Source of the DNA: Escherichia phage vB_EcoP-101114BS3 | Reading direction: 5' to 3' (one strand) | Length of the DNA: 64,000 nucleotides | Sequence record: MZ234015.1 | In this document: piece after piece, positions 19,974-55,675 of the stretch | Numbering within the stretch: position 1 is the first letter of the stretch | Layout: each line of letters starts with the position of its first letter | Made by a program: the position numbers and the translations under genes | The notes under the pieces: model-generated | Seen by the model: only the letters and a program-made list of their open reading frames with translations | What the model was told of the DNA's origin: nothing | Database searches by the model: none

Positions 19974-20039
19974 GTTTCGCCTTATCGGTCATCATAACTC
20001 CTTAATATATCAGTGTACACTAAGGAGTATACATTATGT

Positions 20040-25293: not shown

Positions 25294-25827
25294 TTATACA
25301 CCCTTAGATGCAACTACACCATTACTGCCGTTGTATCGACCCTTCACTGCATAAGAGTCATCACCAGCGTGAGAGTGTTCGAACATAACCATTTGACCAA
25401 CACGCATCCCAGCACGAACTCGTAAGCTATGATTATGGGTAACGTTATGAAATTCAAAGGTTAGTTTACTGCTGTTAAACCCTGCATCAGCCCAACCAGC
25501 ATGGAGGTGGTTTAAACCACAACGAGCCATTGAGGAGCGAAGTACAAACAGGCTTGAGATGTTATCTGGAAGGTTAAACTCTTCCATTGAGTGCGCTAAG
25601 AAGAATTGCCCCGGAGTGATAACAATACCATCTTCAGGGATTTTTACTTCTTTCCACTTGAGGTTTTCTTTAGCATCAATGTCAACAATTCCGTCAGCCT
25701 GTTCTTCAACAAGGATAGTATCACCAATACGGATATCCACGCTAGCAGCGTTAACATATTTATGCTCCGCATCTAAAAAGCCATTATCAATAACGCTGTG
25801 TAATTCTTGAGAACCTAAAAGACTCAT
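25294..25827 (-). CDS. dcd: dCTP deaminase family protein
   Basis: FVLRSSMARCGLNHLHAGWADAGFNS...GMRVGQMVMFE matches the dCTP deaminase/dUTPase-fold signature. Confidence 0.75.
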   Translation of the reverse strand: MSLLGSQELHSVIDNGFLDAEHKYVNAASVDIRIGDTILVEEQADGIVDIDAKENLKWKEVKIPEDGIVITPGQFFLAHSMEEFNLPDNISSLFVLRSSMARCGLNHLHAGWADAGFNSSKLTFEFHNVTHNHSLRVRAGMRVGQMVMFEHSHAGDDSYAVKGRYNGSNGVVASKGV

Positions 25828-27287
25828 GAGTTTCTGTTTCCTTGTACAGATGATGCCAAATTATTAATCATGTTACGAGCTGTTTCACGAGATAGTGTAA
25901 CACCTGCTAAGTTGTTATGAAGCTCACCAGATAGCTCACGAGCAGCAGCTCGAAGTTCTGTACCAAGTGTAGTATCGGAGTGAGCCAAACCATTACGACG
26001 ACTATAAGGTCGAGGAGCTTCGTTAGCGTCATTAGCCAATGATGCAAAACCAATATGAGCAGCTTCACGAGACGCTATAGTTGACACTCGATCTTCCGTA
26101 GGGGTTGGCAAATCACCAACTTCTACACGTTCTATATCACCAGCACGTAGACCCTGAACGACTGAGCTTACTGTTTCCCATGAACGACGAGAACGCTGTA
26201 AATCACCCATTGACGGAGAAGAAGCAGGTCGAACAGTTACTCCACCTGTATCATGAGTGACATGCCATGTACGAGTATCCATTCCAGAAGAGCGTGCACT
26301 ACCAAAACTGCCAGTGAAAGTGTCACGAGGTGCCATTGTAGGAGGAACTGCGAATCTTTCCTGTTGCCAAGAATCGCGTCTGTTAGTTCCCGGAGTCCAA
26401 GGCTGCGTGATTGCTTCAGCACCTATAGTGGTTAATCCGCTAGACCATTCTGTCTGTAGGTTAACTTCCTCGTCCAGATAACTACGACCCCTTTCCTGAG
26501 GAATGTTTAATATAGTTTCCATCATCTTCAGGGTATAATGACGACGCTGATTCTGATATAAATTTACACCAGCCATAGGTCCAACTAAATCACTAATCAG
26601 GTGAACTTCTGGCTCACCGAAAGCTCCCATTGCAAGGTGCATATATTCGGTAGAACTGCTATAAACTGCAACAGTTGCTTCAGGCCACTTCTTGTGAACA
26701 TACTTCATTTCACGACCAGATACCACAGGAATGTCACGAGTGTATGACATTGCAAACAAACCTTCGTTTGACACATACATGTCATCAAGAGACATGAACC
26801 CCTGACAGATCATAGGAAAGCGACGGCTTAAAGTATCCATATCCAAAGGTAGATTAATCATCATCTGGATTTTAACTTGATCAATCTCAATTTCCAGAAT
26901 CTCTTGGAAAGTGAAAAGTGCTTCAGCGTAAGTTGTCCCACTAACAGGCTGAACTAGGCGAGATGTAGTTTGAAGCCCTTTACTCTCTGTCCAAGACAAG
27001 AAGTTGTCAAGGAACAGTGCAGCATTCATCACGTTAGCAGGGTTGTTTTCCTGACGGGTGTTCCAACGAAACCCTCCTTGGACTAGGAAGATATCCACAT
27101 CATTCGGAGTTCGGTTCTGGAAGAACGTATCACGGATAGCACCACCTGCAATAACAGGGTAGATACCATCAGGAACTACGTTGTCTCTGATCAGATTGCG
27201 AATCAGATCAAGCCCTACGCTGAGGGCTTCTCCTTCTTGAAGGTTTAATTCAGACAATGGAATCTTAATCATTTCTACATTTTCCAA
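25824..27287 (-). CDS. Nucleotidyltransferase (Pol-beta superfamily; CCA-adding / poly(A)-polymerase-like head) with long low-complexity C-terminus
   Basis: [14 protein letters not shown]...NDVDIFL matches the GGxVRD...DxD head-domain motif. Confidence 0.6.
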
Positions 27288-27823: not shown

Positions 27824-29607
27824 GGACGTGCCTCCCCTTCCTGTGCAAGTAAGGAAGCTGCATCCTCTCCATTGGTAACGGTAAAAGGATGCTCTTCATC
27901 AACTTCATGATCTTCTCGTTCTACAAGACGACCTGTTTCGTTAATGTATTTGGTATAGCAAACCCCTGTCTGTCCATAGTTACGCTCTTTGAGCAGTCGT
28001 ATGATTGACAAGTTTTTACCTAACCCATCCGCTTGTTTGTTACGTTCAAAACCAATAATACACTGACACCAGCGCATCAATGAACGTGAACCAGTAAACT
28101 GTACTTCTTTAACCTGACCACCTTCTTCGTGAGGTGCACCACCTGCCGGAGCGTTCAAGTGAGATAATACAAAAGCAGTGAAGTCTAATTCCTTACACAT
28201 ACCAGCAAGCTCTGAAGCAATCTTGCTGATTTCTGTGTTTACCTCAGATGGGGTTAAGTGAGATACCAATGCAGTGATGTTATCAAGAATGATAAATTTA
28301 CACTGATTCTCAACTACCCAAAAGCGAATACACTGCTTAATGTCTTCCCACTCGTTCTGCCCAAAGTTGTCATACAAGAAAAACTTATCAGCGTATCGAA
28401 GTGCTTCATCTCGTAGCTGGCTTTCTTCGTACTCAACATCTGGTCGGTGGAATGGAATAGATGCAGATTTACCTGCAATGTTCTTAACAGACATGCCTAC
28501 CTTCTCTTCCAAGAAGAAGCCACCACCATTAAAACCATGCTCAAGGCAAAGCCATGCTACTAGTTCGTGTGCGATTAAGGTTTTACCTGAACCAACACCA
28601 CCGCCGATTGCAACCATCTCTCCCCAACGAATACCAAAGGTCATGTCGTTAAGAGTTTTCCACGGATAAGGAATACCCCATTCCGCTTTCTTCAGAGCAT
28701 CTTCGAGGCAATCAAAAACTGTAACAGCTCCAGCAGGAGATTCCCGCTTAGCTGAATATTTCAGATTGTTGAAAAGCTCTTGACCTCTCCCTGCAAGTAA
28801 CATGTCGTTTGCATCTTTGATTTCCTTTTCTTGTCCGTTATAAGTGAACGTACCTTTTGGAATCCTTGCAAACTTAACATGCGGGTACAGAGAACGACCC
28901 TTAGTTAAAGCAATCTCACCTGCATCATCATTGTCCATGCAGAGTACAATCTCCTCGAAACCATTAATAAAATCACGGTTTCTTGATAATACAGAAGAGA
29001 TTGAACCTGCACCGAACGGAAGAGAGACGCAAGCAGGTTTGATGTTAGTTGCGTTTGTAAACGCGGTAAGTACGTGGAACCCAGACATACAAGAGAGAGG
29101 ATCTTCAAAGATGAAGAGTTTCTTGTTGTATACGTCACCACGTTGTGCTTGAGCCATACCAAACAAGTCGGCTTCTTTCACATTACCTACATAATAGAAC
29201 TTCTTGCTGTCTAGAAGTTTTACTTCATATCCAACAATGTTCCCATCACGTTCACGAGGGAAGAAGTAGCTGTCAGGAGTTTGACCATCTGTTTGGCTTA
29301 AACCGATACGGCATCCATAACGTTCAGATACAGCTTTAGGAATTAAGCGACGAGTCAACTCTCCCTGAGGAAGCTCTAAGCAATCGTCTAAGACTTCTCG
29401 GAGTTCTTCAGGGGACAGCTCTTTCTTTTCATTAGGAGTGGGCGTCGTTCCTTTCTCGAAGATTTCATACGCACCACATCTGTTACATGAACCCCACTCC
29501 TCACCGGACTCTTCATTTCGGAAGAGAATCATGTGATTGCGGGTCTTATCACGACCATGAGAGATACACTCTTTACAGCCTGTGTCTCCCAAAATGATCT
29601 TTGACAT
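27817..29607 (-). CDS. Primase-helicase (T7 gp4-like)
   Basis: N-terminal Cys4 zinc-binding region (CKEC...CNRC), central primase region, C-terminal Walker [11 protein letters not shown]. Confidence 0.85.
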
Positions 29608-29642
29608 GCTCTATCCTCCTTGGAATTCCTTGAGCAATCTTC

Positions 29643-29849
29643 TTAGTAAAACGATCGTATTTCTTCCCACACATCATCTTGCAAGTTTCTAAAACCCTGC
29701 AAGGTTTGCTTTGTTCTGTGAATAAATTCTTCAGAGTGCTTATCAGGTGTGAGCATACTGACAAACTTTTCATAGCGATTAATCTTCCACCGCATCTTCA
29801 AGTAGTCAGATTCCAGCTTTCTTAACTTCTGCCTGTCAGTTACTGTCAT
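29643..29849 (-). CDS. Hypothetical protein
   Basis: Internal ATG at 29849 preceded by AGGTGAG; the longer ORF-track version (to 29945) overlaps the GGCT-like gene. Confidence 0.4.
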   Translation of the reverse strand: MTVTDRQKLRKLESDYLKMRWKINRYEKFVSMLTPDKHSEEFIHRTKQTLQGFRNLQDDVWEEIRSFY

Positions 29850-30267
29850 CCTTCTCACCTGCCAGATATGCTGTCCAGTCACCAGATTCAACCAGAACAT
29901 CTTGTTCTTCGTCGATGTGATAAATCCACGCTTCCACAGTTTCACCGCTGTCCAATAATACTGGAATCAGTGTACGCTTGTAAAAGGTGTATGGGTTATC
30001 ATTACCACGATGACCTTCCAGACCGTCATACGGACCTTCCAGACCAGCTTGGGTTGTTTCAAAGACTTCTACACGAACAGGCTTACCATTGCTGTCATGC
30101 TCCAAAGATACACTTGGGAAGTATGCTGTGCAATACTGATACAGGTTACAGTTGTTTACTGTCCACCCTTCACCAATAGACACACCACCTGCACGAGCAT
30201 TGATAGCGTGGTTGTGTTGACCTTTACGAAGAGAACCATACGTTGCAACTAATACTTTATCAGACAT
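29836..30267 (-). CDS. Gamma-glutamyl cyclotransferase-like (AIG2/GGCT fold) protein
   Basis: N-terminal VATYGSLRKGQHNH matches the YG[ST]L signature of GGCT-like proteins. Confidence 0.7.
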   Translation of the reverse strand: MSDKVLVATYGSLRKGQHNHAINARAGGVSIGEGWTVNNCNLYQYCTAYFPSVSLEHDSNGKPVRVEVFETTQAGLEGPYDGLEGHRGNDNPYTFYKRTLIPVLLDSGETVEAWIYHIDEEQDVLVESGDWTAYLAGEKDDSN

Positions 30268-30271
30268 TACA

Positions 30272-30469
30272 TTACCTTTTGTTTAAAATTTCTTTTGTAC
30301 AAGAAGTCCCGTTACACACGAGAACTGTTTGAGTTATAGAATCGACAACTGTTACATGGCTGCCGCATTGAGTTATGATTTGACCTCTCCCTGAATCTTT
30401 AGAGATGCATTCATCAGCGGCGATCGCTGACACACTGAATAAGGAGAGGAAAAATAGAATCTTTTTCAT
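30272..30469 (-). CDS. Small secreted Cys-rich protein
   Basis: Signal peptide MKKILFFLSLFSVSAIAA followed by 6 Cys in ~45 residues. Confidence 0.5.
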   Translation of the reverse strand: MKKILFFLSLFSVSAIAADECISKDSGRGQIITQCGSHVTVVDSITQTVLVCNGTSCTKEILNKR

Positions 30470-30475
30470 GGCTGC

Positions 30476-30892
30476 TTACCAATCATGTTGGAAACCAGAA
30501 TATCCAGAGAAGATGATTGATCGGATTGGCTTTTCAGGGAATCCTTCAAAACATCCCTTAATGGCTTTCTTGGTTTCATCAGAAATTGACTCTTTTTCAC
30601 CAAACCAATATTCTTCAAAAATATCAGAGAAGATATAAGTTCGGTATCTTTCCAAGTCATAAAAACCTTCCACTGCACTTGTAACAGCTCTACTAATTAC
30701 ACTTGAAGCTACAGGAAATAAGTCACCGTGTTCCAGAAACAAGCACCAACGATCAAAGAGAGGAATCTCTTCATCTTTCAGAAGACTTTCTAACTCTTCC
30801 TTTGCCTCTTTCTTGTGCTTCTCAAAGAGGTTTTTGGAATACTCTACATCTAAGATACGACTTTTAAACATATCCAGTTTATTATTAACCAT
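30476..30892 (-). CDS. Hypothetical protein
   Basis: 138-aa ORF in the cassette operon. Confidence 0.55.
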   Translation of the reverse strand: MVNNKLDMFKSRILDVEYSKNLFEKHKKEAKEELESLLKDEEIPLFDRWCLFLEHGDLFPVASSVISRAVTSAVEGFYDLERYRTYIFSDIFEEYWFGEKESISDETKKAIKGCFEGFPEKPIRSIIFSGYSGFQHDW

Positions 30893-30949
30893 TTTACAAC
30901 CTCTAGTTAAATTCGAACTAGCCTCCTCTTTCGAAGAGGCTAAAGCAAA

Positions 30950-31135
30950 TTATTCTACTTCGAAGTGTTTGATCACACCAGTCAGTACATCAGATTGGAA
31001 TGTACCCACTAGCTCTGTACCTCGGAAAAAGTTAACACTTGTTCCAAGTGATTCAAAGCGATCTGCTTGAATGTCCAGAGATTGAATATTTCCTTCTGCT
31101 GACATTGTACGAAACATGATTGTGTATTTATTCAC
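30950..31135 (-). CDS. Hypothetical protein
   Basis: 61-aa ORF. Confidence 0.4.
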   Translation of the reverse strand: MNKYTIMFRTMSAEGNIQSLDIQADRFESLGTSVNFFRGTELVGTFQSDVLTGVIKHFEVE

Positions 31136-31374
31136 AGACTCGTTACTCCCTTATCTGCTTGTGCAATTGCGATGATACGCTCAGCACATTCCATTGAATA
31201 CTTATCACCTCGTTTGAGGAAGGTGATGATTGCAGAGAACTGATTACCAATCATTCTCTTATTTGTGATACCAAACTCTTCACAGAGTTGGTTGATAGCT
31301 TTACGAGAGCCTACAATCAGAGGCTCTTTTTCTTCGGTCATTCCACGGCTGATCAAATCTTCGATAGACAACAT
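31132..31374 (-). CDS. Hypothetical protein
   Basis: 80-aa ORF with start/stop overlap to its neighbour. Confidence 0.45.
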   Translation of the reverse strand: MLSIEDLISRGMTEEKEPLIVGSRKAINQLCEEFGITNKRMIGNQFSAIITFLKRGDKYSMECAERIIAIAQADKGVTSL

Positions 31375-31400
31375 TACAAATTCCTTTTTGTTTAATTTAA

Positions 31401-32636
31401 TTACAGAGTTACTGCTACTTCGCTACCTTCAACATTGACAGACTCTAACTTGCGAGGGTTATGAATCTGGACTGGATTGACCGGAACGTTCCAACCACTG
31501 CGGTAGAAGTTACGACCATCACAGAACAAAATGACATTGGCAGACATTGCATTCGGTTGAAGGTTGTTGTGGACGTGACGGATATCTGCAATCCAGTAAC
31601 CACGAGACAAAGTGTAACCAGTAGGTGCATTACGAATAGTTTGAGTATTCATCTGACCTTCTAGCTGCATTTCTTCAGGAACTACATCTACCGAATCAAC
31701 CGGCTGTGCTACTTGTCCTTCCAGTGCAAAGTTTTCATCATCAGCACTTTCAATATCATCCACTAACTCACCGTCTCCATCTTCAATCGGAGTCTGGTAA
31801 ACCACTTTATACTGAGGAGTATAGAGAGGGTTCTGAGCTTTAACAAACTCAAGAATGTTATGACGGTAGGTATCCAGAGTTGTACCAGTCAGGCCCGGTG
31901 CTGTATTAACTTCCAGTACCCACGCTTCTTGACCTTTGGTGATAATATCAACTGCACCGAAATCCAGACCCATTGATTCAACAGCTTTCACTGCATTGAT
32001 CAGAGAGGCGTCATTCGGAGCATCTGTGAAGGAGCTTGAGTAAACCCAGCCAGTGTGGTGATTACGAATATCTTCACGATAGTTAGGGTCTTCGCGATAA
32101 CCATTGCGACGAATCTTCTTCTGAACATAGGTGATTACACCTTTGAACACATGGACACGCCACTCACGACGTGGGCCTTGAATGCCTTTAGTGTACAGTT
32201 CAGCTCGACCAAGACCATCACCCGGTTCTACAACAACAATGCCCGAACCAGAGTGACCAGTCAGCTCATGGCGCTCATACACAATATTACCAGTGTTTGA
32301 CCACTCTTGAGCAGTCTCTTGAACATCTGTGTATTCCACAGTTTTAACACCTGCTTGGTCCATCACGCTGAAAGCACGACGTTTGTTCGCTGCCATATGT
32401 AAGGCTGCGGTACGGTTAAGGACGGTTGCAGAACCAAAGAATGATTCAGGATAGCGACGGTTCCCGTAGTTAACAACCACATCACCTTCACGAGAACGCC
32501 AGCGGCTATTCTCTGAAAGAAGACCCATCACGTTAGCATTGATGCGTTCATCACGGATAGTATCACTGATAGCAGATACTAGAGCGTTAACAGAATCAGA
32601 CGGGCCATACGGAAGAACACGGATACGAGTAGTCAT
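31401..32636 (-). CDS. ATP-grasp ligase (RimK-like)
   Basis: GHSGSGIVVV (ATP-binding loop) and WVLEVNTAPGL motifs. Confidence 0.75.
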   Translation of the reverse strand: MTTRIRVLPYGPSDSVNALVSAISDTIRDERINANVMGLLSENSRWRSREGDVVVNYGNRRYPESFFGSATVLNRTAALHMAANKRRAFSVMDQAGVKTVEYTDVQETAQEWSNTGNIVYERHELTGHSGSGIVVVEPGDGLGRAELYTKGIQGPRREWRVHVFKGVITYVQKKIRRNGYREDPNYREDIRNHHTGWVYSSSFTDAPNDASLINAVKAVESMGLDFGAVDIITKGQEAWVLEVNTAPGLTGTTLDTYRHNILEFVKAQNPLYTPQYKVVYQTPIEDGDGELVDDIESADDENFALEGQVAQPVDSVDVVPEEMQLEGQMNTQTIRNAPTGYTLSRGYWIADIRHVHNNLQPNAMSANVILFCDGRNFYRSGWNVPVNPVQIHNPRKLESVNVEGSEVAVTL

Positions 32637-32638
32637 TT

Positions 32639-32869
32639 TTAGATACCTTTTAGTTTAAGAATTTCGTTACGACAGGATTGAATTTTAGCTTCGATTGCCC
32701 AATACTCAGCGAACATTTCGTCTTCTTGGGCATCGCTTGGAGAGTCGATTAAGTTAAAAGCAAACGGATACAGCTTTCGCTGCTCCGTTACCAGTTGTTG
32801 AAGTCGGAGTTGTTGATACTCCAGCATTGTCAGGTGAGGCTTAGCTCCCTTGCTTGACATGAGGCTCAA
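32639..32869 (-). CDS. Hypothetical protein
   Basis: 76-aa ORF. Confidence 0.45.
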   Translation of the reverse strand: MSLMSSKGAKPHLTMLEYQQLRLQQLVTEQRKLYPFAFNLIDSPSDAQEDEMFAEYWAIEAKIQSCRNEILKLKGI

Positions 32870-33074
32870 CTTTAATCCCCTTCATTTTAACATAGTCAGC
32901 CAACACGTTATTGATAACGGTTGGAAAAGGGATTTCTACTGGAGAGTCAACCAGCTTCCCAATACCTTCTTGCATCCACTTCTGGATTGCTCGGAGGTTA
33001 TCACATCCTGTGCTTGTCATCGGAATACGGCGGGTAGTTACCACGTTATCCAACATCAGTTTACGAACTTCCAT
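32841..33074 (-). CDS. Hypothetical protein
   Basis: 77-aa ORF. Confidence 0.45.
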   Translation of the reverse strand: MEVRKLMLDNVVTTRRIPMTSTGCDNLRAIQKWMQEGIGKLVDSPVEIPFPTVINNVLADYVKMKGIKVEPHVKQGS

Positions 33075-33085
33075 AACTATACCTC

Positions 33086-35089
33086 TTAGTGTTTACCTTT
33101 ACAGTAATCTGAATTACAGATCACCCTGTTTTCTTTGTTCAGTGAGCAAGTTTCTGCATCACGCCACGGAATTTGTTTATAACAGACTGCACAAAACCCA
33201 ATTGAAGTCCAGAGGGCTTTTGTAAACTCAGCTGTTCGTTGTCCATCGTAACTGACAACTGTTTTTCGGAGAGAGGTTGACTTTTCTGGAAATGTCTCCG
33301 CTTTCTCAGCGGGTACCTCCTTTGGGGCATTCTTTGGACCATAAACAGAGATGGCATAAGTATCACCACCACGTTTTTCCAAATACGAATTAGGAACATC
33401 TGCAAGTGTGATGTCCCCTGAACGTTTTGCTGAGCTGACCATTACAATCATACGGCTAAGCATACGTTCATCAACACGAACAGCTACTTCAGGACGACGT
33501 GGGTTGGTTGTGTCTACTGCTTTAGTCCAAATATAACCTTCAGATAGAGTAACATTCTTTACTTTATCTTTGATTTCTTTGGAGCAGATATAACAAACGT
33601 CTTCACCACGAAGTTTACTCATTTCGTTGTCAAACTCGAAATCAGTCTTGACTTCACCACAGATAGCACATACACCCAAAGGCACATCTTCTTCCTCTTC
33701 AGAGGTTTTAGATAACGCTTCGAAGCATTCTGGATGCCAGTATGCCTGATAAGCAAACACAGCCTTACGAGCATCTTTCCAGTCAATGTGCTTATCACAA
33801 CCACCACAGTCACCATGAGAGTGAGATTCCCAGAACTTACGAGTGACTTCTACACCATTCTTAGTGATGAAGGAGTCCTCTGCATCAAAAGGGATATCAT
33901 CATCAAAATCAGCAGTAGTGCTTTGAGGCTCCTTATCTGTAGCATCAACAAACAGCCCTGAAGTTAGTACGAGGCGAATCATACTGTCCACTTCGGAGAT
34001 ACAAGCAATCGTCCCGCGATATACTACCTTTGGGTTTTCAAGAGCCTTAAGATATTCATCTTTGGCTACGTTGTGAACATCCCCTTCGACATACTCTTGA
34101 GCTTTATCATCGTAGATGTAACCAACCATCTTACCACGATCTGTGTTGTTATAAGCATGGAACTCGTGAGGAATAATATCCACACGACCATCACGACGAT
34201 AAGGAAGACCGCGATCGGCAGCCAGTTTGTTCTGGTCTTCAATCGCTTTACGACGACGAATGTCTCCGCTTGTCACGCCGGGCTTGTCGTCTTTGTTTCC
34301 GTAAATGTCGCTTGTGCTGCTGCTTGATTTGTTTGTCTGTTGGTTCTGATAAAGAGAGGAGTTCGAGTAATAGCCGCCCCAGCGACTCGTTACCGTAAAA
34401 ACCGGAAGCGTGTGCTCCACCTCTTGAACCAGAGTCATACGACTGTTAGACACATCAAAGATATACTCAGTTCCCACTTTACATTCGAAGTGGTCATTGA
34501 TATGGTTCTTATGGGACTTAGAACGCTCTAAAATCCACATAAGCATAGCTTCTTCAGAAGCTCCAAACCAATCCAAACCACAGCGGGCTAGGTGGAAAGG
34601 ACGCTCATCATTACGGATAATGTGAAGTGTGTTGTCTTTAGCATCATGCCAAATCAAAGTGAATGCACCATCCAGTTTTTGGATAGTCTCTGCTGCTCCA
34701 ATGGTGTTAATTGAGTGGCAGATGTTTTCACTATCAACTTCGAAACGCTTACTGTCAGGAAGGAGATCTTGATCTAACAGGGTTCCATTATGAACCAGAG
34801 TAATATCCCCGTGAGTAAATGGGTGAGCATTTCGAGCATTGACAGCCCCACGAGTGGCATGTCGGCTGTGACCAACAATCCACGAAGGAGGAACTACGTA
34901 GTTCGTAAGCCCTTTGGTAATATTTGTATATTCTGTCTGGAGCATAAAAGCATAAGAAGGAAGAGCTTCTTTATAAGAGAAGACTTGCTTTTCACCTTTA
35001 CGCTGACCAAACACACCAGTTGAGTGCTGTCCACGGAAAACACCAGCATACAGAAGTTGGTTGAAAATGTCCAAATCTGCTGAGGTCAT
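33086..35089 (-). CDS. Class-II glutamine amidotransferase-like (Ntn-hydrolase) domain protein with C-terminal multi-CxxC zinc-ribbon region
   Basis: GHSRHATRGAVNARNAHPF and LVHNGTL match GATase-II motifs; C-terminus has CGGC, CAIC, CYIC, CAVC pairs; predicted N-terminus MTSADLD lacks the usual Cys2. Confidence 0.65.
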   Translation of the reverse strand: MTSADLDIFNQLLYAGVFRGQHSTGVFGQRKGEKQVFSYKEALPSYAFMLQTEYTNITKGLTNYVVPPSWIVGHSRHATRGAVNARNAHPFTHGDITLVHNGTLLDQDLLPDSKRFEVDSENICHSINTIGAAETIQKLDGAFTLIWHDAKDNTLHIIRNDERPFHLARCGLDWFGASEEAMLMWILERSKSHKNHINDHFECKVGTEYIFDVSNSRMTLVQEVEHTLPVFTVTSRWGGYYSNSSLYQNQQTNKSSSSTSDIYGNKDDKPGVTSGDIRRRKAIEDQNKLAADRGLPYRRDGRVDIIPHEFHAYNNTDRGKMVGYIYDDKAQEYVEGDVHNVAKDEYLKALENPKVVYRGTIACISEVDSMIRLVLTSGLFVDATDKEPQSTTADFDDDIPFDAEDSFITKNGVEVTRKFWESHSHGDCGGCDKHIDWKDARKAVFAYQAYWHPECFEALSKTSEEEEDVPLGVCAICGEVKTDFEFDNEMSKLRGEDVCYICSKEIKDKVKNVTLSEGYIWTKAVDTTNPRRPEVAVRVDERMLSRMIVMVSSAKRSGDITLADVPNSYLEKRGGDTYAISVYGPKNAPKEVPAEKAETFPEKSTSLRKTVVSYDGQRTAEFTKALWTSIGFCAVCYKQIPWRDAETCSLNKENRVICNSDYCKGKH

Positions 35090-35196
35090 GTTGCCGCCAG
35101 CTAATACGATACCACAAATTTTCTAATCCACCTGAAGGGTAAACCCTTTCATCTAATTAACCTTTAAATGCGCCCTGTATAAGAGCGCCCGTTGTG

Positions 35197-36297
35197 TTAC
35201 AGCAGTCGTTCTAATTGCATTTCCAGATGGTCTGGAATATAACCAGTGACGTTATCATCACTGCTACCTGATTCACGCATCAATGCAAACATGTGACGAA
35301 TTTCACGAACCGTTGCGATTCGAGTGCTTTCAATCTGAGGGGTGTAGTAGGTCATGATCTCTTCGTAGACACTGTTGGCATTACCGCGCACATATCCCAA
35401 GAAACCATAGAAGTCATTCATATCACGTAAGTTGATAAGGACTTCACCATCAGGGCCAGTCTGTTGCACACGAACACGACCAACCAAAGTTACAGATTGC
35501 TCACGACAGAAGAGAATATCACGAGCAAGACGATACCCTTCAGTGAGATCACTGTCTCTTGGAGTATAGTCTAGGGGTAGATGTTGAATCATAGGAGCGA
35601 AGCGCAGCTCATTCAACTTCTCAACATAAGCTTCATTGTCTAAATCTGCATATTCAACAGCCAGTTTCTTGAGAACCAAGAAGCGGTTGACCAGATTCAG
35701 AAGTTGGCTCTTTTTCCACTTCGGCTCTGAGATACGGAACTCAACAGAACCAAATTGAGATAGAGGCAAAAGATTAAGGGAGGTGTATTTATCCCAGCTA
35801 TTAACAAGAGAGTGGAAGAAAGCTTCCCCGTCTCGGTTGAACGCTGACGAAGCATTCATAACTTGTGCTTGAACGACAGCAAAAGCTGGACAGAAGTTGC
35901 TACGATAGCGATGGTATCCAGAACATTTGAACATCATCTTTTCATAGAACGTCCATCCAAGAATAACTTTCTTAAGGATATTACTATCAGCGTCACGCAT
36001 ATCCATATGAACGTGAGTGGAGCAGCGCCAAGTTCCCTCGGCTCCAGAATCCTGTACTGCTTCACTCAGATTGTTAATAGCACGAAGTAATTCTTCACCG
36101 TTGTAAGGTCGTGCACATACTAATTCACAACCATCACGAAGAGAGCCATCTTCAGTACAAACCCACATATCAGCGTCAATGTCAGTTGTACCTTCGACTT
36201 CTAACTCAATACCAACACCACACTGAAAAGCAATACTTGGATGCGGTTCAGATAAGCGAGGGTTACGGTATCCAAAAACTTGTGCTACGGTTGTCAT
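35197..36297 (-). CDS. Amidoligase-like (carboxylate-amine ligase, GCS2/glutamine-synthetase-like fold) protein
   Basis: GVGIELEVEG near the N-terminus and GSVEFRISEP later resemble amidoligase motifs. Confidence 0.55.
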   Translation of the reverse strand: MTTVAQVFGYRNPRLSEPHPSIAFQCGVGIELEVEGTTDIDADMWVCTEDGSLRDGCELVCARPYNGEELLRAINNLSEAVQDSGAEGTWRCSTHVHMDMRDADSNILKKVILGWTFYEKMMFKCSGYHRYRSNFCPAFAVVQAQVMNASSAFNRDGEAFFHSLVNSWDKYTSLNLLPLSQFGSVEFRISEPKWKKSQLLNLVNRFLVLKKLAVEYADLDNEAYVEKLNELRFAPMIQHLPLDYTPRDSDLTEGYRLARDILFCREQSVTLVGRVRVQQTGPDGEVLINLRDMNDFYGFLGYVRGNANSVYEEIMTYYTPQIESTRIATVREIRHMFALMRESGSSDDNVTGYIPDHLEMQLERLL

Positions 36298-36920
36298 AAT
36301 GATTCCACCAACTCTACATTATATGATGACAGGTCTGAAGAAATATGCTTGAACTTCTCCAGAAGGTTTAAAGATTGACGACCATTGTCGCCATAACCAG
36401 CTTCAAGAAGCACGTTTCCAACGTAAGCCCCTTTGTAATAAACTTTTCCATCGACAGGATTGATATAGATGAAACGAGTAACCAACCCTTCAAACTCTGG
36501 ATTAAACAGGTTATACACCAAATCACCCGGAATCGAACGTCCGAGAGAAGGTGGAGTACCACGAAGTTTATTCCCCATCAAGCCTTTAGCTCGCTGACGA
36601 ACAGGGTTGATATGGGTCCAGCTCACCACGTTATTACCATGCTGAAGGTATCCTACATCTGGAGACTCCAGAATGAGGCTGTGATCAAACACTGGGATAT
36701 TACTAACAATCTGACGTTCAAACTGACCTTCGGAGTTTTTAGTCCAGCGTTCCGCCTCAAACACTAAAGACATTTCAGCGTCGTGTGAGTAGTCGTCGAT
36801 ATCAAAGTTACCTTGCTGACGAACATCAAGCACATATAGAGGGAGGTTTTTACCATCAGGTGATCGCTGAGCAATCCATGTTCCACAATAATAGTGTTGA
36901 AAATCTCTTAACAAGCTCAC
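36294..36920 (-). CDS. Hypothetical protein (cassette member)
   Basis: 208-aa ORF, start/stop overlap with the amidoligase gene. Confidence 0.55.
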   Translation of the reverse strand: MSLLRDFQHYYCGTWIAQRSPDGKNLPLYVLDVRQQGNFDIDDYSHDAEMSLVFEAERWTKNSEGQFERQIVSNIPVFDHSLILESPDVGYLQHGNNVVSWTHINPVRQRAKGLMGNKLRGTPPSLGRSIPGDLVYNLFNPEFEGLVTRFIYINPVDGKVYYKGAYVGNVLLEAGYGDNGRQSLNLLEKFKHISSDLSSYNVELVESL

Positions 36921-36929
36921 AATATCACC

Positions 36930-37781
36930 TTATACAATCTGGAGTTTAGAGGAGAATTTATCTGCTTCTTTAACATCGTTACTGTTGATGATGTTGTGAA
37001 GCTTTTCAATTGGAAGGCGAGAGTGAAGTGACATCAATACTTCCATATCACAGCCTTGAACAACCTTATCAACTTGCTCATAAACAAACTTGCGGGTTGA
37101 CTTCTCGCCAATCCAGAAGTTAGAAAGAGAACGATATTCAATACCGTAATCCTTGTAACGAATGGCAGAAGCCTTTCCGTATAACTCTTTACGACGAGTG
37201 TCTTTATCCATGATTACAGCTGGCAAGGACAGGAAATAATCACACAACACACCCAACATCATTTGAGTTTGTCGAGTAATCTCTAAAGTCCCGGAGACAC
37301 CAAGGTGCACATGACCCCCAGCAGTACGCAAACCCTTATTAGTTGCGACCGGTGAAGGGTTCTTTTGTCCAGTGAAGGCATTGAAATCAGGAGTACAACC
37401 AAATACAAAGGCTGACGGATGGAAAGATTCAAGCTCTTCTGAAGTGAACACATGAGAGCTAATCCCAAGTGCTGCCTCCATGCCACGTTCATTGAGAACT
37501 TTGTTAGTCAGATCAATACCACGCTGAATGTTATCATCAAACGCTTCAAACCCTTCCTGTGGGTTAATATCAAACTCGGCCAGAACGTTGTCTTCTTGAA
37601 GACGAACATCAGGAGCCAGATCAATTTTATTGTCTTTAGAACAGCCCAGCTTACCAGCCACAGAGGTGATAATACCGGAAGCAGTACGAACAAACATTTC
37701 AGGGTCAGAGCCAATAAGGAAAGCGCGCTTAGTCATTGTAATACTCCACGAGTTCATCAAAAAGGGAAACAACACGAGCAC
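36930..37781 (-). CDS. Hypothetical protein (cassette member)
   Basis: 283-aa ORF; conserved-looking FLIGSDPEMF and GGHVHLG segments, function unknown. Confidence 0.55.
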   Translation of the reverse strand: MLVLFPFLMNSWSITMTKRAFLIGSDPEMFVRTASGIITSVAGKLGCSKDNKIDLAPDVRLQEDNVLAEFDINPQEGFEAFDDNIQRGIDLTNKVLNERGMEAALGISSHVFTSEELESFHPSAFVFGCTPDFNAFTGQKNPSPVATNKGLRTAGGHVHLGVSGTLEITRQTQMMLGVLCDYFLSLPAVIMDKDTRRKELYGKASAIRYKDYGIEYRSLSNFWIGEKSTRKFVYEQVDKVVQGCDMEVLMSLHSRLPIEKLHNIINSNDVKEADKFSSKLQIV

Positions 37782-38679
37782 CAGCTTCTTCTGGTGTCAT
37801 TGAGGAAGGTACTGCTTGCATCAGACGTTCGATAAAACTTTGAACAGTAATTCTGTCCATACGCTGATCTAATACTTCTCGCTTGTGACCTGCACAAGTT
37901 GACCAGAGACGTAACCACTCACTCATACTCTCATAATGGTCAGGGTCTTGGTCACGACGACGTGCCATACGACGGAGAACTCCATCATTATGGTTTCGTA
38001 CATAACCATCTCGGTTGTCATCAACACCGAATACATTCTGAACCCATACGTTTTCAGAAAATTCATCAGTGGTGCAAATTAATGGCAGAAATGCAATTGC
38101 ACTCATGTCGCCATCAAAATAAGTCGCTGCTGACTCATCGGTTGAGTCTACGTCATTACTATAACACCAGCGACCAAAGAAGTTACGACTTAAACCAGCT
38201 AAGCGTAGAGCTAAACCGATTCGTTGTCGCTTAAGCAACTCTTCCTTGTCTTGTACGCCTTCCTGAAGGAACTCCATTCCATTAAAATCACCATCCAAAT
38301 AGCTACGGATGGTCATTAGTCCAGTAAACACCTTGTCTGCTGGATGGTTTCGAAGGTTCACGGCAATAGAGTTCACCGAAGTGACAGAGAACATATCTTT
38401 ATAGCAAGACATTGAGTTAAAAATGTCTGTTGCTTCAACTAAAGCTCTTTCGATATCTTTAGCTGGTACGCCATAAAAATTGTGAGGCCAGAAGTTAATA
38501 ACTTCAATTTCTGAAGTTCTGTCACGAAGGCTTGTTCGGTTACGACTTTCACCGTTAATGTCTGTAACAGAATACATGTGCATACAGTTAAAAGTACCAA
38601 AGCAAGCTCTTCCTTTGAACACTGACTCACCGAAATCCTCTGCCGGTGTTACCGGAGCAATCGATGCGGAGATTGACAT
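37729..38679 (-). CDS. Hypothetical protein (cassette member)
   Basis: 316-aa ORF. Confidence 0.55.
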   Translation of the reverse strand: MSISASIAPVTPAEDFGESVFKGRACFGTFNCMHMYSVTDINGESRNRTSLRDRTSEIEVINFWPHNFYGVPAKDIERALVEATDIFNSMSCYKDMFSVTSVNSIAVNLRNHPADKVFTGLMTIRSYLDGDFNGMEFLQEGVQDKEELLKRQRIGLALRLAGLSRNFFGRWCYSNDVDSTDESAATYFDGDMSAIAFLPLICTTDEFSENVWVQNVFGVDDNRDGYVRNHNDGVLRRMARRRDQDPDHYESMSEWLRLWSTCAGHKREVLDQRMDRITVQSFIERLMQAVPSSMTPEEAGARVVSLFDELVEYYND

Positions 38680-38687
38680 ATTCGCCT

Positions 38688-39905
38688 CTATTTATTAAAG
38701 AATAATTTTTCCATAATGGTTTCCCACTCTTCTGAGGGGAGGGTTGAGAACCCGTTTCCGTGAAGCCTGTTTGTCATGCAACTAATAATATTGTACATGT
38801 TGTAGCTTCGGGTGGATTCTGTTCCATTGTTCCAGTTATAACCGAAAACAATTTTATCGAAGGAGGTTTTATCCGTAGTTACTTCTCGGATGAACTCAAC
38901 CAAGAGCGATTTCTCTGTGATGACCGCACGTTCACCATCTGGCAGATTACAATACTGAGGAAGAAGAATTGGTAAGAACATCGAATTGTTCACTCGACAA
39001 TCACGAACATCTTCACTGCGATAGATTAGGCTTGAGAAGTCTTCATCACGCAGGTGTCCTTCACCTTCAGTGTATTCACACTGTCGCCATTTGGTCTGAC
39101 GAGGTTCAATCATTGTACTACCAACGCCTACTGTATACAGAGACGCTTGGAAGATACACGAGTCGTAATCATTCCCTGTTAAAGCAACTTGCTCATTGCC
39201 GAACACATCCACTGAAGAGTTAATCAGTCGGCTGAATGCAAGAGAGGCTAGTGGAGACCAACCTTTCTTATACATCTTGTTCAGCATTTCATACACAGCA
39301 GATTTTTCATCATCTGTATAGAATGTACGATTCAGCATCAGATAGAACAGAGCGCGATCAGCAGGACAACCATCAGTACAAACACCCATGAATCCTACTT
39401 CATGCCATACCAGACATGAGTCAGAATCTTTATCCATGAATGCTTCAAAGGCTTCCATTACAGCCCTGTCAGTAACATCAGGACGGTTGTTTTCTTCTGC
39501 CCATGTTTCTACATGAGAAGGAGGACGAGGGTCTCCATTCTCCACCCCTTCGCGGAAATATTGAGTGGTAATAGGCTTTTTATCACCATAACGTTTTACA
39601 CCATAAGCGGGAAGGTGTGTACCAGAGTTCCAGATGTACTTAATTTCGGACATAGGCATCATGTTTTCGAGAACGTTCTCTTCAGCAGTGCCTTGACGAA
39701 CCATCATATTTTCACTCCACACCTTAATGCGGATATTCCAGCCGTAGTTGCTGTCATACGTGTTATAATAATCAGGATCACCATCTTCATCTTCATCATA
39801 ATCACCACCCTGATAGTAACCTGCTTTCAGGAAACCATAACAAGGAGGCCAGACGGTTACAACATCATCTGATTCTTTCCAGCTTTGAAGTGTTACAGGG
39901 AACAT
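38688..39905 (-). CDS. Hypothetical protein (cassette member)
   Basis: 405-aa ORF with acidic Asp/Tyr-rich N-terminal segment. Confidence 0.55.
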   Translation of the reverse strand: MFPVTLQSWKESDDVVTVWPPCYGFLKAGYYQGGDYDEDEDGDPDYYNTYDSNYGWNIRIKVWSENMMVRQGTAEENVLENMMPMSEIKYIWNSGTHLPAYGVKRYGDKKPITTQYFREGVENGDPRPPSHVETWAEENNRPDVTDRAVMEAFEAFMDKDSDSCLVWHEVGFMGVCTDGCPADRALFYLMLNRTFYTDDEKSAVYEMLNKMYKKGWSPLASLAFSRLINSSVDVFGNEQVALTGNDYDSCIFQASLYTVGVGSTMIEPRQTKWRQCEYTEGEGHLRDEDFSSLIYRSEDVRDCRVNNSMFLPILLPQYCNLPDGERAVITEKSLLVEFIREVTTDKTSFDKIVFGYNWNNGTESTRSYNMYNIISCMTNRLHGNGFSTLPSEEWETIMEKLFFNK

Positions 39906-39916
39906 CTTTTACCTCT

Positions 39917-40279
39917 TTACTCTGCTACCAAAAGGCTCAGAGATTTGCGAATGTAGTCAATACTACGGAAGTTTCGATAGTTCTCTTGGAAGCGCATTTT
40001 TTCAAACTCTGCTTCCTGAAGCTCTACCTCTGCTGCTTTATATCCTGATAAAGCTAAACTTACCACATCCTGAGGTAAGGTATTACGACGGCGAATAAGA
40101 TATTTATTCGCTTTTAGTTTACCTTGTGCACGAGCCATTTTGGCCTTTGCCGCCTTGATACCATGAGAAATCCAAAGCAGTTGCTGTTTCAGATCTTCCT
40201 CATCCATACCACCTAAATCATTTGCTACTTTATGCAGCGTAGACAGGTTCACATGGCCTTTAATGGGGCGTAGGTTCAT
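39917..40279 (-). CDS. Hypothetical basic protein
   Basis: 120-aa ORF, first gene after the 40280-40684 gap. Confidence 0.5.
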   Translation of the reverse strand: MNLRPIKGHVNLSTLHKVANDLGGMDEEDLKQQLLWISHGIKAAKAKMARAQGKLKANKYLIRRRNTLPQDVVSLALSGYKAAEVELQEAEFEKMRFQENYRNFRSIDYIRKSLSLLVAE

Positions 40280-40443
40280 AACTTCTCCTGTTTGTCACAT
40301 TGATTGGTTAGCCAGTTGTAAGACCCACTGTTGTTCTTGCTTAACTCGCAAGATGCAAAAGAGTACATCCTGACAAACCCCACAGTGGCTAAGCAAATAA
40401 AGATTGCTGCCAATAAGAATTTAGCTTTCAACTTATTATCCAT
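40276..40443 (-). CDS. Unlisted small membrane protein (~55 aa)
   Basis: ATG at 40443 preceded by GAGG; translation MDNKLKAKFLLAAIFICLATVGF...; its stop overlaps the start of 39917-40279 (ATGA junction). Below the 60-aa cut-off of the ORF track. Confidence 0.35.
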   Translation of the reverse strand: MDNKLKAKFLLAAIFICLATVGFVRMYSFASCELSKNNSGSYNWLTNQCDKQEKL

Positions 40444-40560
40444 ACAACCTCTTCTTTGAGCTTAAAAAAGGACTCTCCTAAGAGAGCCAAGCTTTAAGGC
40501 CAATTAAATAGATATCACCCAATATCTGTGGATAACCTGCTCTTAAAATATTCTATCCGA

Positions 40561-51304: not shown

Positions 51305-51439
51305 GGCACTAAGTGCCGGATGTTTCAAGTCATCGCTGACCGTGTGAACATCTTATCATAATGATTCGATGTGTCAACAACTATTTTTCGATTAATGCAT
51401 CTTGATAAACTAGCGACCGTTAAGGCCGCTAACCTTACC

Positions 51440-51679
51440 TTAGTTCATACGTTTAAAGGTTAAATCTTTATCTGTACTTACCAGCGATAACACCGCAATA
51501 GCTTTGCCTTTATCGGCATCGGCTACCATCTCTTTTGCCTGCTGTAATGTACTACCGACTATTCTCATAATCATGTTAGTAACGTTAATGCTAGTGCAAG
51601 TGATTTGCGTGTCTTTGCTTGAGAAGGTGTAGATGTTCATTGATAAATCCTCGTTATGGCATGGTTGAGAGTTTATCAA
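51440..51679 (-). CDS. Hypothetical protein
   Basis: 79-aa ORF; start uncertain. Confidence 0.4.
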   Translation of the reverse strand: MINSQPCHNEDLSMNIYTFSSKDTQITCTSINVTNMIMRIVGSTLQQAKEMVADADKGKAIAVLSLVSTDKDLTFKRMN

Positions 51680-51952
51680 GATACACTAATCGAATTATTA
51701 AAGAGCAAGGCTAAACATCTAGCCTATCAGGAGGTAACTTACTGCATCACGTCCTGATAAGATTCAATATACACTATCCTAAAACCGTTGCAAGTCTTTT
51801 TCTAAAATAATTTCACTTTCTTTTAGGCATAAAGGAACGAACACACGAATAACATCAAGGGAGGAAGAAAACAAGCTCTATAATCGAAATCTAGGCACAT
51901 AGGAAGCATCCTAGCGAGCTAAACAGGGGCAAGATGTGCAATCACCTTAGAA

Positions 51953-51980
51953 ATGAAAAAAGCGCCTCAAAAGGGCGCTT
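51953..51980 (-). terminator. Rho-independent terminator
   Basis: Minus-sense AGCGCC...GGCGCU hairpin followed by U5, after the stop of 52000-52371. Confidence 0.55.
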
Positions 51981-51999
51981 AGAGAGTCTTACGGATTGG

Positions 52000-52371
52000 T
52001 TACGGATTGGTGCAAGTGCCGTTACCGGATGATATTTCGTTCATCGACTCATCGAACAACGTCATGCTAGACCGCATCATGTGATCTATAGTGATTTGCT
52101 TTCCGGTAATTTCGTTAACAAGCATTGCAGACTTACTATCAACTATCTTGCTGTCGTAGTCGTTCAGGTCAATCAATACTACCTTGCTGGACTTCTTGCC
52201 AGTGTCGTAGTTTTCCATAAGATAGGTGCATTGCAGACCATCTAAACTAGCCTCGTTGAATACGGCAGCATAGGACACGGAAGAAATAGCGAACAAAGCA
52301 GAACATACAGCTAATTTAATTTTCATGATCCAACCCTTAAGCGGAACGTGCAACAAAGAAAAACAAGTCAT
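52000..52371 (-). CDS. Secreted protein (signal peptide)
   Basis: MKIKLAVCSALFAISSVSYAAVF signal-peptide-like N-terminus. Confidence 0.5.
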   Translation of the reverse strand: MTCFSLLHVPLKGWIMKIKLAVCSALFAISSVSYAAVFNEASLDGLQCTYLMENYDTGKKSSKVVLIDLNDYDSKIVDSKSAMLVNEITGKQITIDHMMRSSMTLFDESMNEISSGNGTCTNP

Positions 52372-52418
52372 AGATAAATGCTATGATACAGAGAACTAAC
52401 AGACAATGCAAAAAATAC

Positions 52419-52691
52419 TTATGTAACATTACTCACCACTTTATCTAGATGATCATCGAACGTTTCACAAATGGATTGCACTTCGTCAATATCTAGTAAC
52501 AGACCGTGACGGGCAAAGAATTGAGCTAACTCAAGATAATCCGCACCAATAAGCATGACACCATTGAAAGGGGCGATCTTAACATCTTGAGATGTTACCA
52601 ATAATAAATTACCAATATCAGCAATAGCGTCATAATTCAGCGTAACGCCTACACCGTAATTGTGTGTTTCAATAATGGCAATAGTTTCCAT
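52419..52691 (-). CDS. Hypothetical protein
   Basis: 90-aa ORF; N-terminus resembles that of 52694-52942. Confidence 0.45.
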   Translation of the reverse strand: METIAIIETHNYGVGVTLNYDAIADIGNLLLVTSQDVKIAPFNGVMLIGADYLELAQFFARHGLLLDIDEVQSICETFDDHLDKVVSNVT

Positions 52692-52693
52692 CG

Positions 52694-53815: not shown

Positions 53816-53884
53816 ATATAATGTAAGTTAGTTACAGGTAACAGGTCAGACCATGCGGTAATAAATTACCAGTCAAATTCCTAC

Positions 53885-54740: not shown

Positions 54741-54769
54741 TCACTCTCGTTTATCAGAGGAGAACAAAT

Positions 54770-55664: not shown

Positions 55665-55675
55665 TAAAAGGCGTT

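Follow-up and report, generated by a model that had tools for sequence, protein, structure and literature searches.

Background

The amidoligase operon of phiEco32-type phages was reportedly described by Iyer et al. in 2009 (Mol Biosyst 5:1636) and by Hardies et al. in 2013. The gene cassette was first described in phages phiEco32 and LUZ24 in 2008-2009 and again in phage RIO-1 in 2013, and belongs to an already known kind. Here we compare with these systems the minus-strand gene block at positions 29836-39905 of a 64,000-nucleotide stretch of DNA from Escherichia phage vB_EcoP-101114BS3 (sequence record MZ234015.1; the whole stretch is hereinafter referred to as the window). This block, from a lytic podovirus, represents the amidoligase operon of the phiEco32 type, and we consider the possibility that it specifies a pathway of gamma-glutamyl transfer.

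The 2009 prediction is cited in the relevant passages of PMC10580990, PMC11318856 and PMC11706807, and the 2013 description in those of PMC4819975 and PMC5498523. A first-pass annotation of the window, made from the sequence alone, had pointed out that comparable phage gene neighborhoods were known from computational work, and these citations bear this out. The cassette is represented by dedicated Pfam and PHROG families, of which PF14395 is named after the phiEco32-type ligase, and is annotated in several deposited relatives. The literature that we searched for an experimentally established function of the cassette offers nothing beyond annotations and references to the 2009 prediction, and seventeen years after the first description no product is named in it. 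Once identified, the product would show how phages remodel the metabolism, the proteins or the cell envelope of the host in a manner not recognized before. Several of the amidoligase-bearing phages are candidates for phage therapy, and the existence of relatives that infect Escherichia coli K-12 (the BASEL phages Bas86-Bas93) makes the function genetically tractable. The new elements of the present analysis are the proposed ATT start of the amidotransferase gene, which would place the catalytic cysteine (Cys1) at the N-terminus, together with a fully conserved leader; the addition of the X3 and DUF7195 proteins to the predicted core of the cassette; the probable paralogy of the X1 and X2 proteins, which have no match among solved structures; a zinc-ribbon architecture that is common to the amidotransferases; and arguments that place DNA modification as the least likely role.

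Conservation of the operon across phage lineages

The genes of the block are co-directional and tightly spaced, as the first-pass annotation had stated, and the coordinates it gave hold. The region is 100% identical to positions 51383-61452 of NC_070982.1, the genome of Escherichia phage vB_EcoP-101114UKE3 (Gordonclarkvirinae, genus Suseptimavirus); the window is a circularised genome, with record positions 1-9855 matching window positions 54146-64000. At the nucleotide level, the cassette region is 95-99% identical to those of about 15 further deposited phages and 74-89% identical to those of the rest of the subfamily, which includes phiEco32. The BASEL phages Bas86 and Bas87 show 98% identity over the cassette. 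The proteins of the cassette show 42-84% identity to those of phiEco32.

Comparison of annotated loci, combined with BLASTP and profile hidden Markov model (HMM) matches, shows that the phiEco32 gp77-gp88 and LUZ24 gp14-gp22 operons consist of the same families in the same order and occupy the corresponding location upstream of the primase/helicase gene. The common gene order, which is seen in phiEco32 (gp88 to gp75), Salmonella phage 7-11 and Pseudomonas phage LUZ24 (gp14 to gp25), is X1, X2, COOH-NH2 ligase, X3, Amidoligase_2, glutamine amidotransferase (GATase), DUF7195, ATP-grasp ligase ... gamma-glutamylamine cyclotransferase (GGACT), a small gene, primase/helicase and exonuclease. Seven families, namely the five enzymes, X3 and DUF7195, are retained from phiEco32 and 7-11 to LUZ24 just upstream of the primase/helicase gene. 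In Pseudoalteromonas phage RIO-1, the genes for the five enzymes are rearranged relative to this order and again precede the primase/helicase gene, and the match to X3 is weak. The differences between the present locus and the phiEco32 and LUZ24 operons include nothing essential; the present phage adds a DUF7020 gene and a gene for a protein with a signal-peptide-like N-terminus. Homologs of the amidoligase were found in 293 phage records, 120 of these from Pseudomonas phages and 92 from Escherichia phages, with the rest coming from phages of Aeromonas, Vibrio, Proteus, Salmonella, Cronobacter and Pseudoalteromonas; marine phages encode such homologs as well. Five catalytically intact enzymes have been kept together with conserved partners in lineages whose cassette proteins are only about 25-50% identical.

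The enzymes of the cassette

In the first-pass annotation, four enzymes had been recognized in the block, and the set was interpreted as one suited to building or trimming amide or gamma-glutamyl links. Searches of the Pfam, PHROG and NCBIfam profiles support each of the four assignments, and the general interpretation agrees with all these searches as well as with the published view. The GGACT protein matches PF06094 (E 8.9e-16; 59 bits compared to the gathering threshold of 22.8) and PHROG 2520 (E 4e-41). Its YGSL motif, which had been noted on first inspection, includes Y10, G11 and L13; neither these residues nor the catalytic Glu84 vary among the five lineages compared (the window phage, phiEco32, 7-11, LUZ24 and RIO-1). 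The ATP-grasp assignment likewise is confirmed by PHROG 2599 (E 8.7e-170) and by the NCBIfam MptN model (E 2.5e-9, match over residues 71-251), although the match to the Pfam RimK family is weak (E 7e-4; 19.6 bits, under the curated cut-off of 21); the closest solved structure is RimK (5zct, E 2e-3). Across the lineages, 46 alignment columns of this ligase are invariant, including the Mg/ATP-binding residues D230, E242 and N244 and a set of K, R, E, H and Q residues. The amidoligase-like protein belongs to the Amidoligase_2 family as surmised (PF12224, E 3.1e-8; 34.2 bits compared to the cut-off of 22; PHROG 7469, E 4e-142), and has an invariant E31/E33/E35 cluster as well as invariant H95/H97 and E186/R188.

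A further enzyme comes from the group of five proteins that had initially been listed as uncharacterized. Four of these retain that status, whereas the fifth, encoded between X2 and X3, matches the COOH-NH2_lig family PF14395 (E 2e-8; 34.2 bits compared to the cut-off of 25) and PHROG 3815 (E 2.4e-112), and is 52% identical to the homologous protein of 7-11 and 42% identical to LUZ24 gp16. Going by these profile matches, it is a second GCS2-type ligase. Sequence searches against solved structures yielded no matches for the GATase, Amidoligase_2 or COOH-NH2_lig proteins, in the case of the two ligases even at E 10. The catalytic residues are retained in all five enzymes across deep divergence, which suggests that the pathway is functional.

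Start codon, leader and domain architecture of the amidotransferase

The identification of the product of the 33086-35089 open reading frame (ORF) as a class-II amidotransferase, proposed in the first-pass annotation, is upheld by the match to GATase_6 (E 2.6e-14), but the start of that reading frame is not. This ORF, which is also the RefSeq model, opens with MTSADLD at an internal ATG at 35089 and lacks the N-terminal catalytic Cys. Upstream of this ATG, the in-frame codons are TAG AAA ATT TGT GGT ATC GTA (stop-K-I-C-G-I-V), and the true start is predicted to be the ATT at 35119, yielding (f)Met-Cys-Gly-Ile-Val, so that the RefSeq model begins 30 nucleotides too late. Several observations converge on this prediction. 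A strong Shine-Dalgarno sequence, AGGTGGA, is located at 35133-35127, 7 nucleotides ahead of the ATT; with the ATT start, the alignments to both the PHROG 4736 and the GlmS models begin at the second position of protein and profile alike; and Cys1 is invariant, along with Arg26, Arg73, Thr76, Asn98, Gly99 and Asp123, between this protein, E. coli GlmS and four other phage homologs. Furthermore, the phiEco32 gene is annotated with an ATT start and has no downstream ATG; in this respect, the deposited annotation of the present phage, with its shortened N-terminus, differs from that of phiEco32. In 7-11, LUZ24 and RIO-1, the gene starts with ATG-TGT. The position of the Cys directly after the initiator Met, which is the hallmark of class-II GATases, is obtained with the ATT start only. 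A clone made from the RefSeq coordinates would be devoid of the catalytic Cys and should be inactive.

The leader of the GATase gene is strongly conserved: over approximately 50 nucleotides, the ATT among them, seven phages of three genera show 100% identity, compared to about 75% in the flanking coding DNA. The leader contains a mini-ORF of 9 codons (35152-35123) in the frame of the GATase ORF, which encompasses the Shine-Dalgarno sequence and stops 3 nucleotides before the ATT. The simplest reading of this arrangement is translational coupling of the mini-ORF to the weak ATT start. Alternatively, rare read-through of the TAG codon might produce a 12-residue propeptide that would be removed autocatalytically. 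Further upstream, a hairpin at 35188-35170 has arms that vary between genera, and every version pairs when inspected by eye; alignment-based folding of the leader did not recover this stem and gave no covarying pairs.

The GATase proteins of the five lineages share a common architecture that consists of the GATase domain, a low-complexity linker, a small beta domain, an acidic linker and one to three zinc ribbons of the CxxC...CxxC type; CxxC pairs are present in all five lineages, and the protein of the window phage has three ribbons. No synthase or ammonia-acceptor domain was recognized in the GATase of any lineage, and for the C-terminal 447 residues the sole match was a weak one, to a LIM/zinc-finger model. 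The lack of an acceptor domain implies that the GATase either works with separate proteins or acts as a hydrolase. In the alignment, the glutamine site is preserved, including Cys1, the oxyanion hole (Asn98/Gly99), and Arg73 and Asp123, which together bind the free alpha-amino and alpha-carboxyl groups of L-glutamine in GlmS; the conservation of these GlmS residues suggests that the ligand is L-glutamine or an L-gamma-glutamyl compound with free alpha-amine and alpha-carboxyl groups. GGACT and gamma-glutamylcyclotransferase (GGCT) enzymes require the same kind of substrate, an L-gamma-glutamyl compound with a free alpha-amine.

Partner proteins and lineage-specific inserts

Profile comparisons indicate that X3 is a true core member of the cassette. 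The X3 profile, built from 30 homologs, matches the gene directly upstream of Amidoligase_2 in phiEco32 (8.5e-88), 7-11 (1.4e-14), RIO-1 (4e-4) and LUZ24 (5e-4), and the LUZ24 protein, gp17, belongs to the same PHROG as X3 (phrog_4877, E 1.5e-72). In the present phage, the X3 gene is also located directly upstream of the Amidoligase_2 gene, with a 4-nucleotide overlap. The structure predicted for X3 is mostly beta, with tandem SH3/Tudor/KOW-like barrels; X1 and X2 have no match among solved structures. The DUF7195 protein (PF23825, E 3.3e-19) belongs to the same family as LUZ24 gp20 (E 5.2e-19) and has a homolog in 7-11 (BLASTP E 9e-16); its gene immediately follows that of the GATase in phiEco32, 7-11 and LUZ24.

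X1 and X2 are more narrowly distributed than X3 and are found only in some of the cassette-bearing lineages. X1 has 40 homologs, of which none belongs to a Pfam family, and a Pfam scan of all 32 members of the X1 family gave only scattered single matches; for X2, matches are limited to 21 clusters among 1.84 billion representative proteins. The two proteins share colinear motifs, PAD[RK]..LM..R and W.Q...G..R[DN]. The X1 profile matches both 7-11 genes that occupy the equivalent positions upstream of the ligase gene (1.6e-4 and 1.5e-3), and the match of the X2 profile to the same gene pair is marginal. Given the shared motifs and these matches, X1 and X2 are probably old, distant paralogs; direct comparison of X1 with X2 using hhalign gave an E-value of only 0.085 with a low probability. 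Homology of LUZ24 gp14 and gp15 and of RIO-1_7 to X1 or X2 was not demonstrated, and these proteins are equivalents by position only.

Among the small ORFs that had been left unnamed in the first-pass annotation, two can be identified, namely the DUF7195 gene and a gene located between the ATP-grasp and GGACT genes, the product of which is 76% identical to phiEco32 gp79 (E 5.7e-45) and is absent from 7-11. The gp79 protein of phiEco32, which binds the host RNA polymerase, inhibits sigma-70-driven transcription while activating the phage sigma factor (PMC8948821, PMC12276001). The DUF7020 protein (PF22885, E 1.4e-19) and the adjacent protein of 65 amino acids with a signal-peptide-like N-terminus had no BLASTP homologs in the phiEco32, 7-11, LUZ24 and RIO-1 loci. 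These two genes accordingly are accessory, and the DUF7020 gene and the gp79 homolog are lineage-specific inserts. Another small protein, gp082, is homologous to phiEco32 gp78 (L002 12080-12265; BLASTP E 9e-10), and no homolog was found in 7-11, LUZ24 or RIO-1. The C-termini of gp082 and gp78 are ..HFEVE and ..IFITE, respectively, and the terminal Glu of this protein, which is not conserved outside the subfamily, recalls ligase substrates of the LysW, Pup or S6 type.

A predicted gamma-glutamyl pathway

GCS2/glutamine-synthetase-type ligases typically form gamma-glutamyl amides or amidate carboxylates with ammonia, and ATP-grasp enzymes of the RimK/MptN/CofF type attach alpha-linked glutamate. 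These families, together with the match between the substrates of the GATase and GGACT proteins, make a pathway that adds, extends and removes gamma-glutamyl groups the most economical reading of the cassette. Specifically, we propose a cytoplasmic pathway that acts on an amine or peptide acceptor, a viral "gamma-glutamyl cycle", and give this proposal an about even chance of being correct. Under this scheme, the Amidoligase_2 and COOH-NH2_lig proteins would couple the acceptor amine, at the expense of ATP, to a carboxylate, for which the gamma-carboxylate of L-glutamate is the most plausible candidate, and the RimK/MptN-like ATP-grasp ligase would attach a further, alpha-linked amino acid. 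The Cys1 Ntn (N-terminal nucleophile) hydrolase might deliver glutamine-derived ammonia to one of the ligases, resulting in amidation of a carboxylate, or might hydrolyze gamma-glutamyl amides in the manner of EgtC. The GGACT-type cyclotransferase could then cleave off a gamma-L-glutamyl group at the N-terminus in the form of 5-oxoproline. Substrate recognition or complex assembly would most likely be the task of non-catalytic components, namely X3, X1 together with X2, and the zinc-ribbon tail of the GATase. As the acceptor, our best guess is not DNA but a small molecule of the amine or peptide kind, for instance a polyamine, an amino acid or a peptide resembling glutathione. The sequence data show the family assignments, the intact active sites, the conserved gene order and the operon structure; the order of the reactions, the gamma-glutamyl chemistry, the roles of X1, X2 and X3 and the nature of the acceptor are inferred from them.

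Several known systems combine similar activities. In butirosin biosynthesis, BtrJ and BtrG employ a gamma-glutamyl group as a temporary protecting group that is later released as 5-oxoproline, and the pairing of an ATP-grasp ligase with a GGACT-family enzyme is shared with the cassette. Unlike the butirosin system, the cassette includes no genes for an acyl-carrier protein, a decarboxylase or aminoglycoside formation, its ATP-grasp protein is RimK/MptN-like rather than BtrJ-like, and it additionally encodes two GCS2-type ligases and an Ntn hydrolase. In the ergothioneine pathway, a GCS-type ligase (EgtA) is followed by a class-II-GATase-like hydrolase (EgtC), and the glutathione cycle involves GshA, the ATP-grasp enzyme GshB, an Ntn hydrolase and GGCT. 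The phage set resembles these pathways in having a GCS-type ligase, a second ligase of the ATP-grasp type, a class-II-GATase-like or Ntn hydrolase and a cyclotransferase, and the EgtC model gives a weak match to the phage GATase (E 6e-3). The differences are that the cassette encodes no EgtB, EgtD, 5-oxoprolinase or dipeptidase, and that the scores are far under the equivalog cut-offs. A link between glutathione and ribonucleotide reductase was considered as well, but no ribonucleotide reductase is encoded by the phage, and the idea was abandoned.

There are also findings that weigh against a gamma-glutamyl cycle. No substrate, carrier protein or transporter could be identified in the cassette. 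The ATP-grasp protein scores far under the curated cut-offs of the characterized families (36.6 compared to 350 bits for MptN, and 27.8 compared to 143 for rimK_fam), which makes the substrate class a guess. The two "degradative" enzymes are indistinguishable from a genuine glutaminase and a salvage enzyme, and X1, X2 and X3, to which no function can be assigned, could change the picture completely. Finally, zinc ribbons and tandem SH3-like barrels, the latter predicted for X3, are typical modules of macromolecule-binding proteins, which would favor a protein or nucleic acid target over a small molecule.

Alternative functions

Several other functions were considered. The cassette could alter the stem peptide of the peptidoglycan precursor (UDP-MurNAc-peptide or lipid II), by amidation or by addition of an extra amino acid, and in this way prevent superinfection or modulate lysis. 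This is the published prediction, for which Iyer et al. 2009 and Hardies et al. 2013 are the usual citations and which is repeated in the relevant passages of PMC5498523, PMC10580990 and PMC11318856. In some bacteria, meso-diaminopimelate is amidated by AsnB-type class-II GATases; a gamma-glutamyl link occurs in the stem peptide, along with a D-Ala-D-Ala unit that comes from an ATP-grasp enzyme; and the operon is co-expressed with early and middle genes. Nevertheless, a cell wall function seems rather unlikely to us: the sites of the GATase and GGACT proteins fit an L-gamma-glutamyl group with a free alpha-amine, whereas peptidoglycan contains D-isoglutamate the amine of which is blocked by L-Ala; and the cassette proteins gave no matches to Mur-ligase, transpeptidase or envelope families in Pfam, PHROGs and NCBIfam. 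About equally unlikely is that the cassette covalently tags or extends proteins in a pupylation- or RimK-like fashion, such that glutamate or a short peptide would be added to a protein of the host or the phage (a ribosomal protein, RNA polymerase or a replication protein, for instance); substrate recognition would fall to X1, X2 and X3, and the hydrolase and the cyclotransferase would trim or reverse the tag. The predicted barrels of X3 and the zinc ribbons of the GATase, modules that typically bind macromolecules, favor this possibility, and in Gordonclarkvirinae the operon carries a regulator of the host RNA polymerase. The GCS2/glutamine-synthetase-fold ligases include PafA and Dop, RimK polyglutamylates S6, and the nearest solved structure for the ATP-grasp protein is that of RimK; in both the pupylation and the RimK-S6 systems, ATP-dependent ligases of related folds attach the gamma-carboxylate of glutamate or poly-alpha-glutamate to proteins. 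Unlike these systems, the cassette has neither a gene for a Pup-like tag nor a known target, and its GCS2-type ligases belong to PF12224 and PF14395; a conserved small protein similar to Pup or LysW was not found in the cassette, and gp082, the only small protein with a C-terminal Glu, is restricted to the subfamily. Moreover, GGACT enzymes act on free rather than protein-bound gamma-glutamyl amines. Quite unlikely, in our estimate, is a broader scenario under which the X1/X2 pair, X3 and the zinc-ribbon tail would direct the three ligases, within a multi-subunit machine, to a macromolecule (a protein or replicating DNA), placing on it a reversible gamma-glutamyl or peptide adduct that contributes to the restriction resistance of Gordonclarkvirinae.

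Relatives of the present phage have been reported to be resistant to EcoRI-, EcoRV- and EcoKI-type systems. Hypermodification of DNA bases, through an amino acid or amide adduct on the phage DNA, would explain the resistance of Gordonclarkvirinae to restriction-modification, and had been among the candidate roles in the first-pass annotation; of those candidates, it now appears to be the least likely, and we consider it highly improbable. The cassette always adjoins the primase/helicase and exonuclease genes, and EcoRV sites (28 observed compared to 18 expected) and EcoKI sites (8 compared to 7) are not avoided in the window. However, other sites are avoided to an extreme extent, with 0 of the 90 expected CCWGG sites, 0 of 19 PstI sites, 0 of 11 BamHI sites and 128 of 293 GATC sites; HindIII (30 compared to 56) and EcoRI (10 compared to 24) sites are depleted as well. 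Only DNA that restriction enzymes can attack is expected to show such avoidance, which argues against hypermodification. Furthermore, virion DNA of phage tf, the genome of which encodes at least the amidoligase and the amidotransferase, was cut by RsaI, HpaI, EcoRV, SmaI and HaeIII and cloned directly (PMC3517423). Known DNA modification families, such as the synthases that form hydroxymethyluracil or hydroxymethylcytosine together with DNA kinase or pyrophosphorylase, DpdA and Mom, are missing among the Pfam, PHROG, NCBIfam and PADLOC matches of the cassette proteins. A very unlikely alternative of a different kind is a plain metabolic booster that redirects the glutamine, glutamate or glutathione pools of the host (for instance through release of ammonia, glutamate or cysteine) into nucleotide and protein synthesis, without a dedicated product. 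GGCT/ChaC-type enzymes degrade glutathione, the glutaminase site of the GATase is intact, and the neighboring genes for ThyX, dCTP deaminase and dNMP kinase are involved in nucleotide metabolism; yet it is hard to see why simple catabolism would call for three ligases that consume ATP along with as many as four conserved partners that are not enzymes, and the strict gene order across four phage lineages points to a single coupled pathway.

Outside the cassette, a minus-strand gene at 25824-27287, between the exonuclease and dCTP deaminase genes, starts with TTG and encodes a 487-residue protein annotated as "nucleotidyltransferase", which has no Pfam or PADLOC matches. The authors of the BASEL collection suspect that the annotated nucleotidyltransferase and the dCTP deaminase take part in DNA modification.

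Layout of the locus

The reading frames of the cassette overlap or closely abut, which suggests co-translation of a single operon, and this operon is transcribed together with the replication genes (Table 1). Upstream of X1, the gp89 and gp90 homologs (BLASTP E 1.5e-47 and 1.7e-6, respectively) precede the cassette, and the edge of the transcription unit is marked by a terminator-like hairpin that was detected in a consensus scan; phage SU7 has an annotated terminator at the equivalent place.

Table 1. Features of the amidoligase operon and its upstream end, in window coordinates
Coordinates	Strand	Feature	Basis
29836..30267	-	GGACT/AIG2-type gamma-glutamyl(amine) cyclotransferase, phiEco32 gp77 homolog	PF06094, PHROG 2520
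30272..30892	-	Accessory insert: 65-residue protein with signal-peptide-like N-terminus (30272-30469) and DUF7020 protein (30476-30892)	PF22885
30950..31135	-	Small protein gp082, phiEco32 gp78 homolog, C-terminal Glu, subfamily-specific	BLASTP
31132..31374	-	phiEco32 gp79 homolog (host RNA polymerase regulator)	BLASTP
31401..32636	-	RimK/MptN-like ATP-grasp carboxylate-amine ligase, extra C-terminal domain at about residues 336-402	PHROG 2599
32639..32860	-	Small protein, phiEco32 gp81 homolog	BLASTP E 3.7e-27; no Pfam family
32841..33074	-	DUF7195 small protein	PF23825
33086..35119	-	Class-II (Ntn, Cys1) glutamine amidotransferase-like protein (GATase), predicted ATT start at 35119	GATase_6
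35120..35196	-	Leader of the GATase gene: hairpin, mini-ORF, Shine-Dalgarno sequence	Cross-phage nucleotide conservation
35197..36297	-	Amidoligase_2 (GCS2/glutamine-synthetase-like carboxylate-amine ligase, type 1)	PF12224
36294..36920	-	X3 (phrog_4877), predicted mostly beta, SH3-like barrels	Profile, PHROG
36930..37736	-	COOH-NH2 ligase type 2 ("phiEco32-like" family), second GCS2-type ligase	PF14395
37729..38679	-	X2 (phrog_13102), many invariant polar residues	
38688..39905	-	X1 (phrog_13063), probable distant X2 paralog	
39917..40488	-	Upstream end of the transcription unit: phiEco32 gp89 and gp90 homologs (39917-40279, 40276-40443), terminator-like hairpin (40488-40471)	

In some close relatives, namely SU7 (L003 5095-5565), EK010, Bas86 and Bas87 (94% coverage), a gene for an HNH homing endonuclease is located between the X2 and COOH-NH2 ligase genes; the equivalent site of the present phage, at about 37730, contains no such gene. 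The Rfam scan of window positions 29000-41000 yielded nothing significant, and none of the cassette proteins matched the PADLOC defense models. No exact copy of the phiEco32 gp36-type promoter motif, TAATGTATA, was found inside or just upstream of the cassette. Elsewhere in the window, exact copies of this motif are located at 13471-13479 and 20028-20036 on the minus strand, and at 4350, 13542 and 63122 on the plus strand.

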